Sequence record: NC_103192.1
From: a phage
DNA length: 64,000 nt
Reading direction: 5' to 3' (one strand)
A model generated the notes under the pieces. That model was given only the letters and a program-made list of their open reading frames with translations. It was not told where the DNA came from and did no database searches. Made by a program: the position numbers and the translations under genes. Positions 37,106-46,234 of this stretch are shown here, piece by piece; position 1 is the stretch's first letter; each line of letters opens with the position of its first letter.

Positions 37106-40100
37106 ATGAGCATGTATAGCTTCGATTTTGAGGCCTCCGGGCTTTTGGAAGATCCAGATCTTTATTATCACTGCGGCCTGTTTAAAGAGCTGAATAAGAA
37201 CCGTTTTATGCTGTTCCTCCCTCTAAATGACCGCACACACTACTCCGAGGAGGATATAGAGAAGGCTAAGAACTTTATTCTGGCAAAGAAAACTCTTTAT
37301 AAAGATTTTGAAGTTCGCATAGCAGATTTTTCAGAGTTGGAAGGTTGGCTTACAGGCAATTCTGACTGGTCACCAACAGCTTTGAACTGCCATAACTGCT
37401 ACAGTTATGACTTTATGCTGATGGAGAGATTATCCGGTATTCATTTTGATATGTTCCGTGATCCTAAATGCATGGGTACTATCAACGATCACCAGGTTAA
37501 CCTGTTTGATACGTTGGCGATGAGCCGAATCTTGTGGCCTGATCGCCCTTTACCAAAAGGTTGCCCGGACGCTGTATTCAACCCGGTTACTAAGAAAATG
37601 CAGCCTGTTGGTCCTCACGGCCTTATGGCATGGGGCTACGCTCTTGGTAACCAGAAAGTTCAAATTGATGACTGGCGCGATCTTCCGCTGTGGAAGTATG
37701 TGGATCGTGTATTTGAGGACGTTATCATCCAGGAGCTGCTCTGGAAAGAGCTAGTAGCGGAATCAAAAGGTGTATTCTACGGCAAATCTGACATGCAGAA
37801 CTTCATGTATGACCCTGCCAAAGAGAAGCCTAAAGGATTCAAGAAGATTACCTGGAAGAATGCATTACGCCGAGGCATGCTGCAGCACTTCCTGATGGAG
37901 CTGCAGGCCCGTCAGGGTGTGTATTTCGACATAGATGGGGCTATTGCTTTACGTGACCGTTGCGATGCGTGGATGAAAGAGATCGCTGATCGTGTTGAAC
38001 CTCAACTCCCTTTAAAAGAGTTGTCAATATCTCAGCGGCCCAAGTTCCCTGAAAAGCCGTTTAACCAAGATGGGACAATCTCCAATAATGGTTGGAAATG
38101 GTTAAAAGATAAGCTTGGCTACCCTGTGGACATGAGCGCTTTAGATTTCAAAGCCCCACCTAAGCGAGCATTTACCTCCACAGGAGATGTCAGTAAGATG
38201 GGGATAAAATGGTGTGAAGAGATGGGCTGCAAAGACCCCGATAAGATGGCTGCTTTCTTGAGAGGCTATATTAAGGGCACTTCCACACCACAACCTTTAC
38301 CTAAAGAGCTGATGGATCAGGCAATAAGTGATCTACAGCAGAAGCGAATGCCTGACTGCAAGATACCTATGAAAATCAGCAATCAGGACGACATTAAGCG
38401 ATACCTGATCAGTGCTGGTTGGCTTCCGACAATGTGGAGAACTAAGGATGTAACTAAAGACAGCAAGAAGAAAGCTCTACCTGATGCAGATGTTGATGCA
38501 CGAGTATATGCATATATGGACGAGCTTTTAGAGTCAGAGTATTGTGACCTAATTATCAACTTCTGGAACAAAACTGATGCTAAGTTTCAGACAACAGTGC
38601 ACAAGTTCCGAAGCTTTCCTAACTCCGAAAGGATTAAAAAGGAAGTATTCGGGAAAATACGCAGAAAAGCTAGGGCACTTATTACTTCCCCGCAACTGAA
38701 AGATACGTTTGGACACCTATGCCCGAATCTTGAAAGATTGAACGGAGAGATGGCTAAAGATATCGTCTTGTGGTTATCATTGCGAAACCGCAGATCGGTA
38801 CTTGATCCAATCAAGGAGGATAAGGTTGATACTGGTCTTCTTAATCACCCACGTTTGAAGATTGACCATAAGCTTCCTGCTAAAAGCTCTGGATTAACAA
38901 ACACTTCCCGACAGAAACACAGTATTTGTGCAAACATGCCTAAACCATCTCCTAAAGTGGTTATGGGTAAAGAGATGCGTAGTCTGTGGGGTGTTCCTCC
39001 AGGATACTTTGAGATCGGTATTGACGGGTCTAACTTGGAGCAGCTTATCGGGGCTTGGGGTGCCTTTGAGTTCGACAACGGCCTGTATTACGATGTTGTA
39101 AGTAACGGCGATGCACACTGTTATTCAGGAGATACACAAATTCTCACGGAGAAAGGGTGGGTGAGGTTTGAAGATCTTGATCCGGGAACACAAGTGTTCC
39201 AGTACGATCACAACACCTCGTCGATGAACCTTGTTACTCCATTAAATTACGTTAAGCGTAGTTATTGTGGGGATATGTATCATTTCCACAACAGCGGTGT
39301 GGATTTTATGGTTACAGATCAACACAGGATGCTGACCGTGGATCACAGAAGCAATAAATTGTTTGAAGATTTGGCAAAAGACCTGAAAGCAGGTAAAGGG
39401 TCTAATTCAGGAAGAAGGTTTATCCATGCGGCAGAGTTTTATGGGAATACAACCTTATCTCCTGCCCAGGTTAATTTGCTTATTGCTATTCACGATGATG
39501 GGCACTTGCATACAAATAAGGACGGCAGCATCGTGTGCAGGATTCAGGTCGGGAAGGGCAGAAAAGTTGCAACGCTTTTAGATACTTTTTCTGCTCTAAG
39601 CCTTAGTTATGTAGAGCAGAGCGGGAAAACCACAAAAGGGGGCTTACTGGCGAGAAGGTTCCAATTCCACGTTCCGTCCTGGGTATTTGAGTTTTTGGAC
39701 AGCAATAAGGATTTCACCTACAACCTGATGGACCTTGATAAAGAATCTAAAAACCTGTTTATAGCTTCTTTATCTAACTGGGACGGGTGGGTATCTTCCG
39801 AAGGTGGAAAAGTTGCCTACTACTCTCAGGCCGAGTGCAGGAAGAAATCTGTAGAGGTTGTGTCTGCGCTGGCTACTCAGTGTGGTTTACGGAATAATAC
39901 GGTAGCGATTCACAAAAAAGGTCGTTCCGTACAGCACAGAATCACGATTGGTAGCAAACAGAGAGCAGGGTTGCTGACACTATCTAAAGAGTCTGTCGAG
40001 GTGAGCGGTTCTTTGGTTTATTGCGTTACCGTCCCTTCTGGAGCAATCATTGTGAGAAGGAATGGTAAAGTGGCAGTGTGCGGTAACTGTAATAACGCCA

Positions 40101-41180
40101 AAGCTTACTCTTCTGTAGCAGGCAAGGAGATTTCCCGTAACGATGGTAAGCCTGTCACGTACGGTGTTATGTACGGGGCACAAAAAGATAAAGTTGCAGA
40201 TATGCTGGACATCTCTCCAGAGTTGGGACAAAGGGTAATCGATGCGCTTTGGGATGCCAACCCCGGTCTTAAGGGGCGTAAAGAGGATCTGGAGAAATTC
40301 TGGGAAGCAACTGGTAAGAAGTTTATCTACTCTTTTGATGGTCATGCCATCTGGACCCGATCTAAACACTCTTTACTTAATGCATACCAACAAAATGGTG
40401 GTGCATCGTTGTGTGACTTAGTTGGGATACTCATGCACCACCAAATGGTGAAGCGTGGGTGGTACGATGAAGGTGTTCGCCGTATTATCTATTACCATAA
40501 ATAACATTGTGGCTTCGTGCAGTGATGCACGTCGAAAACCTCTTTAATTGACGGGAAGGCTAAGTTGACTTTTACACCTAAACATGGTAAAAGCTCGATA
40601 TGCTAATCCGCAGCGAAGCATCCGAGAGGATGAACGTTCAGAGACTATCGAAAGCATAGCTCCAGCATAGTTTGGTGTGAAGAAGCGAGTAGAGTAGGCC
40701 AGCAAGTGCGGTCGAAATGAGAGGTGCCTTGGTAACAAGGCAGTGAGATAGTCCGATCCATACGGGAAACTGTATGGCTATGCACGTAATGGTGCGGGGT
40801 AGCTTAACGACCTACCTGAACTATTGGATGAGTACCAACTTCAAGTACCTGACACACCGAAGTATAAGACTGTGTACACCTTCGACACAATCGAAGAACT
40901 GGAAGCATTTAAGGCAGAGCAGGAGGCCAAACTTCATGTGTTCGACGGTCATAAGTACAAAAAGGCACGCAAGGATGAGGACGGAAACGAAGTGGTTGAC
41001 AGAGACGGAAACACGGTGTACGATCCTATCCTGAACGATGACGGAAAGCTTGAACTTATCTGGAGCCCTGTGGGTGAAATGGTGGTGCATTGCTTCTGGC
41101 AAGCTTCTAAAATGATGGGCGTCCCATTCCAGATCACAGGTGAATACTTGTGTGGGGCTAATTGGGGTAGTTGTCACTAA
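37106..41180 (+). CDS. family A DNA polymerase, exons 37106-40498 and 40827-41180, containing an intein
   Basis: N-terminal exo motif FDFEASGL; motif A IDGSNLEQL; KPVTYGVMYGAQ (motif B region); HDE motif split across the intron (YYH | DEYQL); C-terminus GANWGSCH. Confidence 0.85.
39119..40087 (+). mobile_element. intein (323 aa) with LAGLIDADG-like homing endonuclease domain
   Basis: begins CYSGDTQILTEKGW (block A), block B TDQH, LAGLIDADG-like LLIAIHDDGHL and LFIASLSNWDGW, ends ...VCGN followed by Cys +1; extein flanks GDAH/CNNAK fit the family A pol O-helix region. Confidence 0.7.
40499..40826 (+). ncRNA. group I self-splicing intron (ORF-less)
   Basis: core elements P aattgacgggaagg (40546-40559), Q aatccgcagc (40605-40614), R gttcagagacta (40636-40647), S agatagtcc (40746-40754); 5' exon ends in U, intron ends in G; restores the HDE motif in frame. 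Confidence 0.8.
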
Positions 41181-41229: not shown

Positions 41230-41514
41230 ATGGTAGTAGAACCAACAAAAACATTTACATCCATGACTATCCCTGTTATTATGCAGGTGGAGTGTGTTCA
41301 GGTATCTCAAGTGTGGCCTGGCACTAAAATCCCAACAGGGCCTGATTTCTTTCAGGTTGGGAAAGTGTATAATGTCTGGAAGGCACCAGATTGTTACCCT
41401 TTCATTAAAGATGACCGTGGGATGCTGTGGTATCTTGGAAATGATTTGACACTGCACCTTGGGAATGCTATTATTGCAGTATTCAGACTTAACAAGAAGG
41501 AGACCGATCAATGA
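41230..41514 (+). CDS. hypothetical protein (small paralog family)
   Basis: ATG 6 nt after AGAGGAG; shares a KDD.G..W(Y/F)L motif with the next two ORFs. Confidence 0.5.
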   Translation: MVVEPTKTFTSMTIPVIMQVECVQVSQVWPGTKIPTGPDFFQVGKVYNVWKAPDCYPFIKDDRGMLWYLGNDLTLHLGNAIIAVFRLNKKETDQ

Positions 41515-41738
41515 CAACTTTGGTTAAAGCTACTTTTGTAGAAGAAAAGATGACAGACCTGTCCTTCTTTAAAGAAGGAAAGACCTACGAGGTTTATTAC
41601 GATAAAAATCGTGCAAACAAGATGATTAAAGACGAGGAAGGGATTGCCTGGTTTATCTCCCATCTGGCAAACGGTGAGTATCATATCTACGGAACCACCC
41701 TGCTTGCCAAGTTTGTAGCTGTTGAAGAGGATCTATGA
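41511..41738 (+). CDS. hypothetical protein (small paralog family)
   Basis: 75 aa, motif IKDEEGIAWFISH. Confidence 0.5.
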   Translation: MTTLVKATFVEEKMTDLSFFKEGKTYEVYYDKNRANKMIKDEEGIAWFISHLANGEYHIYGTTLLAKFVAVEEDL

Positions 41739-41929
41739 AAGTAAAGTATCTGGCTGAAGGTATGAGTAGGTATTTTACCCTCGGAGAGGAGTATTGGCCC
41801 TTTACGGAAAATGGAGATGTATACGTGAAGGATGACCAAGGTGTGCCGTGGTTTCTGCACCATAATGGGTTGGGGTATTCCATCTACTGTGGTGCAGTGA
41901 ACAATACAACCCTTGCAGAGTTTGTCTAG
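41735..41929 (+). CDS. hypothetical protein (small paralog family)
   Basis: 64 aa, motif VKDDQGVPWFLHH. Confidence 0.5.
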   Translation: MKVKYLAEGMSRYFTLGEEYWPFTENGDVYVKDDQGVPWFLHHNGLGYSIYCGAVNNTTLAEFV

Positions 41930-41939
41930 AGGAGGCAGA

Positions 41940-42311
41940 ATGTTAGTAAAAGGTACCCACACAGTCAAGCAACGTATTGAAGTTGAGATCGATGATTGTG
42001 AGCTGAAGCATATTTTGCGGTCATGCTCCAACGTTTTGCTCCTTAGTGTTCTCCAGGAGCGAGCGGAGAACGAGTTCTTAAATGCACTGGCAGGCCGTCC
42101 TGGTGACTTCTGTGTACGTAAACGTGGAAATAACAAACCGTGGCTATGGGAAATCGATGCCAGCTGGGATTACCACAAAAATGAGGGTATAGATGAGCCT
42201 ATTCGCGAACTGACTGAAAACGAAGTTCAGATGTACGAAGATGTTTGCCAGTGGGCAAAAAGTCAACAAACCTACCTTGATCCTTGGTGGATGATTGAAA
42301 ATAGTCGTTGA
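41940..42311 (+). CDS. hypothetical protein
   Basis: ATG after AGAGGAGG. Confidence 0.5.
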   Translation: MLVKGTHTVKQRIEVEIDDCELKHILRSCSNVLLLSVLQERAENEFLNALAGRPGDFCVRKRGNNKPWLWEIDASWDYHKNEGIDEPIRELTENEVQMYEDVCQWAKSQQTYLDPWWMIENSR

Positions 42312-42387
42312 CAACAGGTCGGGGTAGATGTAAGATACCCCACACAAACAGAGCGTTGATTTTTAAATAACTAAGGAGACTGCCAAG

Positions 42388-42642
42388 ATGAAAATTACTT
42401 TGAAGCCAGAATGCGTTGCAAATGACCTAGCTTTTAAGGATTGCACAGTCGGTGCAATTTATGAAGCAGAGTTTTGTGAGAACCCTCTGGTAAAAGCCCT
42501 TCTGGAAGAAGGGGCCCCTTTATCACAAGAAGAGATTGATGAGCTGGAAAACTCAGCCCAGTGCCTTACCTTTAAAGATGATGAAGGAGACTCTGTCTGG
42601 TGCACTGTTAATGAAGTAGTTTTTGTAAAACCTGAGCATTAA
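42388..42642 (+). CDS. hypothetical protein (paralog of 42673-42966)
   Basis: 84 aa; KPECVANDLAFKDCTVGAIY parallels KPDYLEKDSAFRDCTADKVY in the next ORF. Confidence 0.5.
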   Translation: MKITLKPECVANDLAFKDCTVGAIYEAEFCENPLVKALLEEGAPLSQEEIDELENSAQCLTFKDDEGDSVWCTVNEVVFVKPEH

Positions 42643-42672
42643 TACTTGACAACATCGATAGGGCCTAATACA

Positions 42673-42966
42673 ATGGCTCTATCAAAACGGAAGGGGACCA
42701 CAGCAATGACCAAACAATATCAACGAATTAAAGCCAAGGTTAAGCCAGACTACTTGGAGAAGGACTCTGCTTTTCGGGACTGCACCGCAGACAAAGTTTA
42801 CACAGGTGCTGTTCTGTTAAACGATGAATTTGAAGTGGATGTTCTTGGCAAAGAGGCCGTTATCGAAGATGACAACGGGGACTGTGTTTTCTGCACCACC
42901 CGTGAGCTGGAAGTCTTAGAATACTTCGGTGAAATCTTCAACTCATTAGATGACGAGGAAGTGTGA
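42673..42966 (+). CDS. hypothetical protein (paralog of 42388-42642; start uncertain)
   Basis: conserved motif as above; ATG at 42673 or 42706. Confidence 0.4.
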   Translation: MALSKRKGTTAMTKQYQRIKAKVKPDYLEKDSAFRDCTADKVYTGAVLLNDEFEVDVLGKEAVIEDDNGDCVFCTTRELEVLEYFGEIFNSLDDEEV

Positions 42967-43367
42967 TGAAAAACATTTGGGATATTAGTATCTTTGAAGC
43001 CTCTGAGCTTGACGGTGCCGATGGGGTTATTATAGTTTCTGATGGAAAGGCAACATTGACCTCTGGACTGACCTATGAGGACACTACCTACGCATTGGGC
43101 GATCTTGCCTTGTTGAAATCAACAGGTGACTCTCTGGAAGAACGTCTGCAAGGATTTGCCTTTAAAGAAGGCACAAGCACCACACTGATGTGCACTACAC
43201 GCACTGTTCAGTTGGGCAACGGGGTCTATATGGTCATTGCTGTGTGCCCCAAATTCAGCAACATTAATAAAGATGATGCTGACGCTGTCAACGACGTGGT
43301 TGTCCTCTTCGTTGGTGACGCTATGGCAGATCTGATGAATGCAGGAGAAGCAGCAAATGAAGACTGA
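42966..43367 (+). CDS. hypothetical protein
   Basis: 133-aa ORF. Confidence 0.5.
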   Translation: MKNIWDISIFEASELDGADGVIIVSDGKATLTSGLTYEDTTYALGDLALLKSTGDSLEERLQGFAFKEGTSTTLMCTTRTVQLGNGVYMVIAVCPKFSNINKDDADAVNDVVVLFVGDAMADLMNAGEAANED

Positions 43368-43659
43368 AAACATCAACCCAACAGGATTCTTGAAAGTATA
43401 CCGTGAACTGCTATATACTACAGAGGACAGTGTTCTAGAGTACCCAGAATACCTTTTGCTGTATAAGTATCTACAGGAAGCTGGTGAAAATCTACCAGTT
43501 AGTGCAGAAGGCGGTCCAAACTGGGTCTACAGCGCATGGAGAAAGGTTGACATTCTCCCAGATCCAGGAAAAGATATGGTAGTTTGGCAGCTTATCAACA
43601 ACATCGGGATTCCAATCTTCGACGAAGCTGTTAAAATCTATTTTGAACTTGACGATTAA
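43357..43659 (+). CDS. hypothetical protein
   Basis: ATG after AGGAGA. Confidence 0.5.
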   Translation: MKTENINPTGFLKVYRELLYTTEDSVLEYPEYLLLYKYLQEAGENLPVSAEGGPNWVYSAWRKVDILPDPGKDMVVWQLINNIGIPIFDEAVKIYFELDD

Positions 43660-43676
43660 TATCAGGAGACCTTAAG

Positions 43677-43922
43677 ATGACTGAAGTAGTTGCTCGCGCA
43701 GGACAGAAAGTACGTTGTGTTGAAGTGGGTTTTGGTGGCAAAGGGTGTCAAAACTTGACTCAAGGTAAGGAATACACTGTTGTTTCTGGCGGTGGTGACA
43801 AAAGTATTGTGTTCGATGACCATATTCTGGATGTTGAAAACTTTGAAATAATTGATGATGATGGTGATCCGATCACCTGCCTGCTGGACGGGAATTGGGG
43901 AACTTTTGAAGTGATTGGCTAA
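43677..43922 (+). CDS. hypothetical protein
   Basis: 81-aa Gly-rich ORF. Confidence 0.5.
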   Translation: MTEVVARAGQKVRCVEVGFGGKGCQNLTQGKEYTVVSGGGDKSIVFDDHILDVENFEIIDDDGDPITCLLDGNWGTFEVIG

Positions 43923-44005: not shown

Positions 44006-44371
44006 ATGGAACAAATGAACGATCAAACGTCGGTTGCGATGAACGAGCAAGAACAACCTCAAGAATTTTTCTTAGGGTTAAGTAAAGATCAAGTGTCTCT
44101 TCTGCTAGTGCTTTCTTCTTTCATGGGAAGACTTCAGGAGCTTACACAACAGCCAGAGGCTGAACAATTATTCCAGGCGCTGCGTGAAGAAGAAAAATAT
44201 CGTCGTTTGGACTATGCCTTAGGTTGGGTAGCTCAACAACGAGATATGCTGATGGCCCTCTCTGGGACCACAAGTTTTGCAATGGGCCTGTTGGCTCAAG
44301 TTCAGGACAAATTAATTCAAGCAGGGTTTGCACACACAGCAAACACCAACGAAGAACAAGGAGACAAATAA
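44006..44371 (+). CDS. hypothetical protein
   Basis: 121-aa ORF, TAATG overlap with the next gene. Confidence 0.5.
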   Translation: MEQMNDQTSVAMNEQEQPQEFFLGLSKDQVSLLLVLSSFMGRLQELTQQPEAEQLFQALREEEKYRRLDYALGWVAQQRDMLMALSGTTSFAMGLLAQVQDKLIQAGFAHTANTNEEQGDK

Positions 44372-45639
44372 TGAGTGTTATTCAACAATTTGCCAACCCG
44401 ATGAATCCGCGTGAGACTGTTTTACTGGCTCACGGCATGATTAAACGTGTTAGCATCAAGCCTATCAAAGGTGCTGATCCTACAACAGGTATTAAAACCA
44501 CTGTGTGGCAAGGTAAGAAAATTGAATCCAGCCACACCATTTCTTTACTGATTTCTGAACTGGATTCCTCTGATAACCTGCTTCAAGGTGGTGAAGAAGT
44601 CTGGATCAGCATGGGTGATAAGCTGCTTAAGCCTGGTCATCAAGACTCCGTCTCTGTTAAAATTGATGACAAGTGGGAAACAGTAACGCCAGGATGGATC
44701 GTAAATATCCCTTTAAAGGCAAATGAGCATAACGGTAAGACCTACTACAAAGGCTCACTGGCTAAAATGGTTAAGTTGGGGGCAGGAGAGGCTCCAGCAG
44801 CGACTCAGCAGCAAAAACAGCAACAAGGTGCACAATCACAAGGTCAGAAGCAGAAACCTCAGCAGAATGCCAATCAGGACGTTTTACGCATCTATGGCGA
44901 TGTGACTCAGATTGTTGGCAACGTGGTTACTGTTAATGACCACAAGATTGGCGAAGGTGCCATGGTTGTCACTGATGAGCAGCTTAAAGATCTGGTGGTA
45001 GGTGGTCGTGTTGCAGCCATTGTTGACAAAGACACCGGAAACATTATCAGTGGTTTCAAAGCCTATCCACCTAAGGCAGAGAACGGCACTCAAGGCTCTG
45101 GTGGCAAGCGTAAATCCTCTTACGACCCTATTGGTGTAGAGACGGGGCACAGCATTAATGCGTTGCAGATCATCTTGGATCGCGGGTTTAAGGTAGACAA
45201 TCCTTTAGACGTAGCTAAAACACTACACGTGGTCACCATTGAGCTTAAGAAAGAGTACGCTCAAGCCACCAACCGAACCGAAGATGAAGTGGGTGCCAGT
45301 GTCGGTAATGCGGTGTTGAACGCTTGTCGCCGTATTGACAAGAAAACGAAAGTTGATGATTTTGCAGCGGCAATTACTGCAGAAGCAAAAGATGTCTTGA
45401 CTAATCTGGCTGAGCCGTTGTACGATTGGATCAAGAACGGTGCTGGAGCCACTGACCATCAAGAGCCTCAAGCTGCCAAACAGGAAGCCACCCCACAGCA
45501 AAACACTGTAGACGCTCCTCCTGTAGATGATGCGGAAGACGACCCGATGGATCAGAATCCGGCACAGTATGAGTTCGATGACATACCTTTCGCTCCGGTG
45601 GGTTTGCAATATGGCAAAAGTAGAATCCACGCATTGTAA
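44371..45639 (+). CDS. putative single-stranded DNA-binding protein (acidic DDIPF tail)
   Basis: ATG after AAGGAGA; Q-rich linker, acidic C-terminal region ...[22 protein letters not shown] resembling bacterial SSB tips; assignment tentative. Confidence 0.5.
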
Positions 45640-46234
45640 GAGGTGCATCAAGTGTGGAGAGGTGAAAAACCTCTCCGAGTTCTACAAACATCCAAAGATG
45701 TCTGACGGTCATCTTAATAAGTGCAAAGAGTGTTGCAAGAAGGCCAGCAGGGAGGCTGACCAATTTTCCCACGACTCTTCAGAAAAAGGTGTGATCCGCG
45801 TGTTGTACAAGACTCAAAAGTGCAACAGTAAGAAGAGAGGTCACCCACCTCCGACTTACACCAAAAAAGAGTTTAAGGAGTGGCTATACCTAAACGGTTA
45901 CAAAGAGTTGTATGACCAATGGGTAGCCAGCGGATACGACAAAAGGAAAAAGCCTTCTTGTGACAGGATAGATGATTTCAAAGGGTACTCTTTTGATAAT
46001 ATCCGTTTAACGACTTGGGGAGAAAATAAAGACAAGCAGACAGAGGATATTCTGTTACATAGAAGCACCAGCGGTAGACGGTGTAAAAATGTAAGGAGGC
46101 TGGACATGAATGGCAACGTTCTTAAAGAATGGGTATCCCACAATTCTTGTAGAAGAGAAACCGGAATATGTGTTGATTACTACATTCATGAAAAAATTCC
46201 AGCCCCAGATGGATACCTCTACGAATACTTTTAG
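45611..46234 (+). CDS. HNH homing endonuclease
   Basis: zinc-binding cysteines [10 protein letters not shown]...KCKECC and HNH_3-type [18 protein letters not shown]; start overlaps the 3' end of the SSB-like gene. Confidence 0.7.

Follow-up and report, generated by a model that had tools for sequence, protein, structure and literature searches.

Results

Two sets of paralogous small genes follow the polymerase gene

The 64,000-nucleotide (nt) stretch of phage DNA analysed here (NC_103192.1; hereafter the window) carries a DNA polymerase gene at 37106-41180 and, downstream of it at 41230-43922, a series of small genes that we lettered A to H, with X1 between C and D. About 115 deposited Vequintavirus genomes (rV5-like myoviruses of Escherichia coli) match the 2.9-kb interval at 92-94% identity, and at least 80% of it is carried by 115 of the 117 matching phage records; all deposited relatives annotate genes A to H as 'hypothetical protein'. 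Among closely similar records are 16 labelled 'Campylobacter phage' (MG0656xx), about 91-92% identical to the window over the whole interval, whose host labels look doubtful. We report that, as judged by alignment, A, B and C are paralogues of one another and D and E are a second paralogous pair, and that the A/B/C module, predicted to be a small beta-barrel, recurs elsewhere in rV5-like genomes and, as fused tandem copies, in proteins of other phages. The genes concerned are the following (aa, amino acids):

41230-41514, + strand: gene A, 94 aa; rV5 gp219/ORF224; phrog_12922; N-terminal extension and the longest beta1-beta2 loop of A, B and C
41511-41738, + strand: gene B, 75 aa; rV5 gp218/ORF223; phrog_12623; predicted six-stranded beta-barrel
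41735-41929, + strand: gene C, 64 aa; rV5 gp217/ORF222; phrog_12802; minimal form of the module
42388-42642, + strand: gene D, 84 aa; rV5 gp215/ORF220; phrog_12544; helical acidic insertion
42706-42966, + strand: gene E, 86 aa from the ATG at 42706 (97 aa from 42673); rV5 gp214/ORF219; phrog_11936

Paralogy was assessed by comparing Smith-Waterman scores with those of 500 shuffles for all pairs of ten neighbouring open reading frames (ORFs). The pairs A-B (z 10.2), B-C (z 10.9), A-C (z 5.6) and D-E (z 12.9) stood out, none of the 500 shuffles scoring as high in any of the four comparisons, while the remaining pairs lay mostly below z 3; six reached 3.0-3.9, none of them within A/B/C or D/E. 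An earlier sequence-only reading of this DNA had proposed sets of paralogous small genes just downstream of the polymerase on the basis of two motifs, and had named motif similarity without statistical alignment support as the result that would refute it. Both motifs were found where it had placed them, KD(D/E)xGxxW(F/Y)(I/L) in all three ORFs of the first set (IKDDRGMLWYL in A, IKDEEGIAWFI in B and VKDDQGVPWFL in C) and KP(E/D)..(A/E)(N/K)D.AF(K/R)DCT in both D and E, and the shuffle test supports the similarity of both sets. Indeed the A/B/C alignment extends far beyond the motif, spanning a core of about 55 residues at 26-37% identity, and that of D and E covers nearly their full length at about 32-37% identity.

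At the A/B and B/C junctions the stop and start codons overlap as ATGA, and in each case the Shine-Dalgarno sequence of the downstream gene lies within the upstream gene (for B, an AAGGAG within A). The same 4-nt overlaps are annotated in phages Gotham, S127 BCL3, rV5 and 241Ecol014PP. A programmed frameshift linking A, B and C was considered and rejected, in view of the separate Shine-Dalgarno sequence and the ATGA overlap at every junction. The start of E is more probably the ATG at 42706 than that at 42673, because a promoter-like site (42646-42674) overlaps the latter and the 86-aa form is the one in the annotation of Gotham.

A, B and C are predicted to be small SH3-like barrels

An AlphaFold2 model of B, built on an alignment of 18 sequences drawn from the three orthologue groups, reached a predicted local distance difference test (pLDDT) score of 91.4 and a predicted template modelling (pTM) score of 0.79. 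The model consists of strand beta1 (residues 3-10), a short helix (12-16) and strands at 25-31, 36-40, 46-48, 56-60 and 64-70. When the conserved residues are mapped on the model, FFxxGKxY runs into beta2, (I/V)KD forms the end of beta3, D/E-x-G the turn of the beta3-beta4 hairpin and W(F/Y)(L/I) beta4; in the model, the motif noticed in the sequence-only reading is thus the structural skeleton of the barrel. The most length-variable element is the beta1-beta2 loop, which counts 16 residues in A, 8 in B and 6 in C. The overall barrel architecture is that of SH3, KOW, Tudor/PWWP and MazF/Kid small barrels, and we predict with confidence that A, B and C are six-stranded SH3-like barrels that share their fold with Gp54 from Escherichia phage Bas11. 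Alignment combined with structure prediction, which the sequence-only reading had suggested as a check, therefore supports paralogy and yields a confident barrel model. A search of the PDB by sequence with the A/B/C profile returned chance matches only (E >= 0.07).

Gp54-Bas11 is a direct ligand and trigger of the CapRelSJ46 immune protein, and is known in this role only (Zhang et al., Nature 2024, PMC11578894). Its beta1-beta2 loop clamps the partner, its nearest structural neighbours are SH3-like small barrels, close homologues of it fail to activate CapRelSJ46, and it is dispensable in the laboratory (PMC11578894). For the comparison, the Gp54 sequence was taken from MZ501085, with PDB 9AXB as the structure and Pfam PF25180 ('Phage antiviral trigger protein Gp54') as the family, which Gp54-Bas11 itself matches at 116 bits. 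The predicted structure of B shows the features by which the Gp54 family is recognized, a small barrel of six strands in which the beta1-beta2 loop is prominent. Gp54-Bas11, however, is without the GKxY and KDDxGxxW motifs that A, B and C carry, and is encoded by a single gene, whereas the rV5-like phages have a coupled three-gene array together with dispersed copies.

D and E may be generic SH3-like barrels; the E model has the same order of secondary-structure elements, the best structural matches of that model being SH3-like. Both are strongly acidic (D, isoelectric point (pI) 4.1 and net charge about -13; E, pI 4.2), as are all of D, E, F, G and H (pI 4.05-4.4, net charge -9 to -14), while A, B and C range from neutral to mildly acidic (pI 4.8-6.5). 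The pair places a GxxY and a DDxGD hairpin at positions equivalent to those of A/B/C, and D and E may therefore be very distant relatives of these genes. Joining the two sets was nevertheless not adopted, as the hhalign probability was 1-5%; D and E are treated as a separate duplicated pair, for which a link to A/B/C may be suggested and nothing stronger.

A relationship between F and the D/E pair is hinted at, not shown. The D-F comparison gave z 3.6, and alignment of the D/E profile to F by hhalign gave P 0.013 with a probability of 3%. A first, apparently strong match (E 3.6e-5) was rejected as an artefact of the presence in the alignment of P0062, the value being P 0.013 without it. P0062 (131 aa) is a natural E/F hybrid ORF joined at a CTTR common to both genes (window 42892-42903 and 43191-43202), which implies a deletion between E and F in some phage. 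The DNA identity at this site in the window is only about 5-8 nt.

The module is dispersed in rV5 and fused in tandem elsewhere

The sequence-only reading had spoken of a local gene-family expansion. The family is not purely local, as shown by a census of rV5, in which 29-138 kb were scanned (L008, L011 and L012) and the window stood in for rV5 1-29 kb. The members recovered were gp219, gp218, gp217, gp111, gp211 (H) and gp161 (E about 1e-4), with gp130 and gp152 borderline; gp161 and gp152 have no counterpart in the window. The product of gp111/ORF116 (78 aa; record 88106-88342, L011:9106-9342) is encoded between nrdD and nrdG, about 38 kb from the A/B/C array, outside the window and separate from the array. 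It scores z 11.2 against B, 8.3 against C and 4.0 against A, matches the profile at 3e-7 to 2e-10 and carries motifs of the A/B/C type (WFTFGKDYEI...DDGCYWFVSY), and its orthologue in phage isim is among the structural neighbours of B. Thus, gp111 is a clear fourth, dispersed paralogue of A, B and C, and its label of 'putative minor capsid protein' looks like an inherited mis-annotation. H appears, at the level of profiles, to be a member of the A/B/C module superfamily, to which it is linked by VxC(V/I)...TxGKEYxV. H and B share a cross-match to phrog_10169; the pairwise z scores of H against A, B and C are not significant. Sub-threshold matches to DUF7244 (PF23896) were obtained from H (E 0.021) and from the database proteins P0082 and P0084 (E 2e-4), at 15-22 bits against a cutoff of 27, and A, B, C, D and E gave no DUF7244 match at E <= 1.

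An exhaustive profile search with A/B/C over 1.8 billion representative proteins returned the three orthologue groups, two diverged single-module proteins (P0076 and P0080) and a set of larger proteins (P0077, P0079, P0082, P0084 and P0085; 179-571 aa) that hold 2-5 copies of the module. Four further candidates, the ankyrin protein P0078 together with P0081, P0083 and P0086, were set aside as spurious, since their scores added up many weak repeat matches. The reverse search confirmed the relationship: a profile made from the multi-module proteins only, with A, B and C left out, recovers C (3.7e-10), A (1.4e-8), B (3e-8) and H (7e-6) from the 709 stop-to-stop ORFs of the window, among which D and E rank 7th and 11th without significance (E 1-4). 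The match is accordingly significant in both search directions for A, B, C, H and rV5 gp111. The multi-module proteins share with A/B/C the pattern (V/I)xC(V/I)...(F/Y)(F/W)TxGKEYxV...(I/V)xDDxGxxW(F/Y), at an identity of only 13-25%, and differ from them in that the modules are fused in one polypeptide rather than encoded by separate, translationally coupled genes.

Relatives of P0077 (346 aa) are present in 91 records of Enterococcus phages; in phage vB_EfaS_SZ1, the source of the one relative examined, the gene belongs to a series of small early genes that precedes an SF3 helicase. The use of P0084 as a tblastn query against phages gave no match, and a further word-indexed search with a broad module alignment added a dozen unnamed proteins of about 105 aa and no informative domain fusions. 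Foldseek comparison of the B model with BFVD retrieved dozens of small uncharacterized phage proteins (template modelling score 0.7-0.8), mostly from enterobacterial phages, many of which have siphovirus-style (vB_EcoS) names and several of which we take to be T1-like. Phage NBD2 has four of these relatives, and two-module versions of 127-172 aa were also found. The module is thus widespread and has been multiplied both as genes and as fused domains, which suggests a general binding scaffold.

The arrays are old and under purifying selection

The small genes were compared with those of three relatives, Gotham, S127 BCL3 and rV5, by the ratio of nonsynonymous to synonymous substitution rates (dN/dS), with the following ranges:

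A: 0.00-0.09
B: 0.18-0.26
C: 0.02-0.09
D: 0.10-0.15
E: 0.02-0.04
H: 0.17-0.23

Every small gene compared is under purifying selection, even at dS 0.5-0.9. A comparison of copy number across related phages, which the sequence-only reading had proposed, showed that gene number and order, and also the overlaps, are identical in every annotated relative examined (Gotham, S127, rV5 and 241Ecol014PP). Two phages have an HNH endonuclease gene between the polymerase gene and A, P0031 shows an internal duplication of 11 aa in A, and P0062 is the E/F fusion ORF; no other structural variants were encountered. As copy number and order are fixed and the genes are under purifying selection, the arrays are old and stable and have not undergone recent or fast expansion. 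The earlier description of a 'local expansion' of 'rapidly evolving' genes is thus not supported by the data, since the duplications are old (26-37% identity), the array does not vary across the genus and dN/dS lies between 0.00 and 0.26.

Beyond the genus the picture changes. With B as the query, tblastn matched only the 115 Vequintavirus records, and in four phages of other Vequintavirinae genera (GAP31, Seu621, CR9 and pEa_SNUABM_56) no member of the module was detected within 6 kb of the end of the polymerase gene. Within the genus, B is closest to that of Gotham (98% nt identity versus 89% to S127), while C and F are closest to those of S127 (94-98% versus 83-85% to Gotham and rV5), a single-gene mosaicism that indicates exchange of alleles at this scale among vequintaviruses.

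Other genes and promoter-like sites of the interval

The interval contains four more genes and, upstream of D and E, two sites of the sigma70 promoter type:

41940-42311, + strand: gene X1, between C and D, 123 aa; rV5 gp216; phrog_6273 (2e-49)
42308-42336, + strand: sigma70-type promoter-like site upstream of D, TTGACA-17-TAAGAT; the annotated rV5 P220 and a predicted promoter in Gotham
42646-42674, + strand: sigma70-type promoter-like site upstream of E, TTGACA-17-TACAAT (11/12); Gotham has a predicted promoter in the same place
42966-43367, + strand: gene F, 133 aa; rV5 gp213; phrog_8284; very acidic
43357-43659, + strand: gene G, 100 aa; rV5 gp212; Pfam DUF7238 / phrog_1451
43677-43922, + strand: gene H, 81 aa; rV5 gp211/ORF216; phrog_4927; acidic

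Promoter-like sites are enriched, with 20 found against 9.5 +/- 3.2 expected. Two strong sigma70-like matches (10-11/12, extended -10 TG) also lie within A, upstream of B, at 41446-41474 and 41254-41282.

When the nine proteins of the interval were scanned against Pfam, none except G scored above threshold; G matches PF23885 (DUF7238) at E 4.4e-7 and 30.4 bits against a cutoff of 27, and is unrelated to either paralogous family. X1 has no significant similarity to A-H in the shuffle test and belongs to neither family. The nine ORFs matched PHROGs families of 'unknown function' only, their products had no match at E <= 0.1 in PADLOC-DB, which holds defence-system proteins only, and Rfam detected no RNA family within 41230-43922. 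These genes go unmentioned in the rV5 genome paper, and our literature search found no report of small Vequintavirinae proteins acting as triggers or inhibitors of defence.

Discussion

We propose that A, B and C are ancient tandem duplicates, each probably a stand-alone copy of a phage-specific barrel of about 55-65 residues, which would be expressed together through translational coupling mediated by the ATGA overlaps and the Shine-Dalgarno sequence that each gene has of its own. D and E would be a pair that arose by a separate duplication, both of them small, very acidic SH3-like barrels. None of A-E is likely to be an enzyme; they may be small protein-binding modules made from sigma70-type (early or middle) transcripts, each paralogue binding a different host or defence protein in host takeover or counter-defence. 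Alternatively, the paralogues could act together as a multivalent set in the manner of the fused multi-module proteins, possibly as a stoichiometric trio. We assign this explanation as a whole, ancient barrel duplicates serving as non-enzymatic protein binders, a probability of about one half. A-E look like non-enzymatic accessory proteins, and a binding role is therefore a reasonable guess. The sequence-only reading had also proposed accessory functions exerted through binding. The non-enzymatic, accessory look of the products holds, as they match no catalytic or known family, whereas the rapid evolution invoked with it is not supported by the dN/dS values. The variability of the beta1-beta2 loop in A, B and C fits diverged specificities, and proves nothing.

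It should be emphasized that several observations weigh against a role in binding host or defence proteins. A, B and C have no match to PF25180 at E <= 1, and neither HMMER nor hhalign (probability 0.1%) detects similarity between Gp54 and the A/B/C module; the relationship to Gp54 is thus one of predicted fold only, and such a match, as modelled, would carry little functional information. H is joined to the module through only half of it. Finally, dN/dS values of 0.00-0.09, as for A, C and E, are unusual for proteins engaged in an arms race and would fit replication housekeeping equally.

It could be argued, indeed, that A/B/C and perhaps D/E are replisome accessory subunits or adaptors that bind the polymerase, the primase-helicase or an SSB-like protein. 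This is the main rival, and we regard it as rather unlikely. The genes lie between the DNA polymerase gene and a gene for a 422-aa SSB-like protein; polymerase and A-C may be co-transcribed, as no promoter is annotated between them in rV5; A, C and E have dN/dS values as low as those of the polymerase; and the block is invariant across the genus. Set against this, the other Vequintavirinae genera have orthologous polymerases (43-57% identity, C-terminal exon) with no module within 6 kb, so the replisome works without A-C. Related modules, moreover, occur in contexts that are not those of replication (gp111 between nrdD and nrdG, and the early clusters of Enterococcus phages), and the fold relative Gp54 is not needed in the laboratory. 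The SSB identity that the sequence-only reading gave to the flanking gene (44371-45639; phrog_4477, 'unknown function') also finds little in its favour, as the 422-aa product, Q/G-rich in its middle part, matches no SSB or OB-fold family and no Pfam family at E <= 0.001; near its C terminus lies an FDDIPF motif, which we take to resemble the tail of the single-stranded DNA-binding protein (SSB) of E. coli.

Somewhat less probable again is that the barrels, which recall SH3, KOW and Tudor domains, bind nucleic acids and regulate phage or host transcription or translation, or that the acidic D and E mimic DNA and thereby block restriction or other defences that bind DNA. That the similarity is real but the genes have no function, being hitch-hikers in the form of decaying duplicates or mis-called ORFs, would be in keeping with their small size, the want of a function or family name, and the truncated or fused variants in the databases (P0048, P0062 and P0065-P0075). 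In about 115 genomes, however, the ORFs are intact and keep their lengths, Shine-Dalgarno sequences and overlaps; their dN/dS is 0.00-0.26 with dS up to 0.9, and the fold prediction is confident. The selection data strongly disfavour this explanation, which we consider highly improbable.

Returning to the protein-binding barrels, a bolder form of the proposal would unite A/B/C, gp111, H and perhaps D/E with Gp54-Bas11 and the many small uncharacterized barrels of T1-like and other phages in one large, phage-specific superfamily of modular binding domains. Phages would use it in the form of coupled gene arrays or fused repeats, to decoy or inhibit host immune sensors in a multivalent manner. 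In that case the rV5 trio would be a hetero-oligomer equivalent to the fused proteins, and members would trigger or inhibit specific defences as Gp54 does CapRelSJ46. We consider this speculative, and doubt that it holds in full.

The genes themselves have been deposited many times as hypothetical, and old tandem paralogues are a common kind of feature. What this study adds is the occurrence of the module as tandem domains in proteins of other phages, the recognition of gp111 as a dispersed paralogue and the lead offered by the Gp54 fold. Small early phage genes mostly have no assigned role, and assigning A, B and C, along with gp111 and H, to the Gp54 fold class, of which Gp54 is the only solved and characterized member, provides a concrete and testable hypothesis in a well-used group of phages for which rV5-like members of the BASEL collection are readily available. 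Should the function be related to replication, or trivial, the finding would simply illustrate old tandem duplication within an accessory region of a phage.

Insertions in the flanking genes

One polymerase gene holds both an intein-like insertion and an intron. A group I intron (Rfam RF00028) was detected at 40489-40776 (73.7 bits, E 8e-17), the intron region extending over 40489-40826, with the exon junction at about 40498/40827 by comparison with the uninterrupted 925-aa polymerase of Gotham. The rV5 RefSeq record lists the two polymerase exons, gp223 and gp220, as separate coding sequences; the only introns described in the rV5 genome paper are those of the terminase. The intein-like insertion, 323 aa long (39119-40087) and beginning CYSGDTQIL, is absent from Gotham and S127. 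It has no match to a Pfam intein model at E <= 0.001, and it matches PHROGs of unrelated proteins (PhoH-like, ribonucleotide reductase and thymidylate synthase), matches that we read as shared inteins. On the other side of the interval, an EndoVII/HNH-like ORF (45527-46234; phrog_1035, 4.5e-41) overlaps the 3' end of the gene for the 422-aa protein; it is absent from S127 BCL3, and rV5 has the endonuclease gene gp208 at this position.

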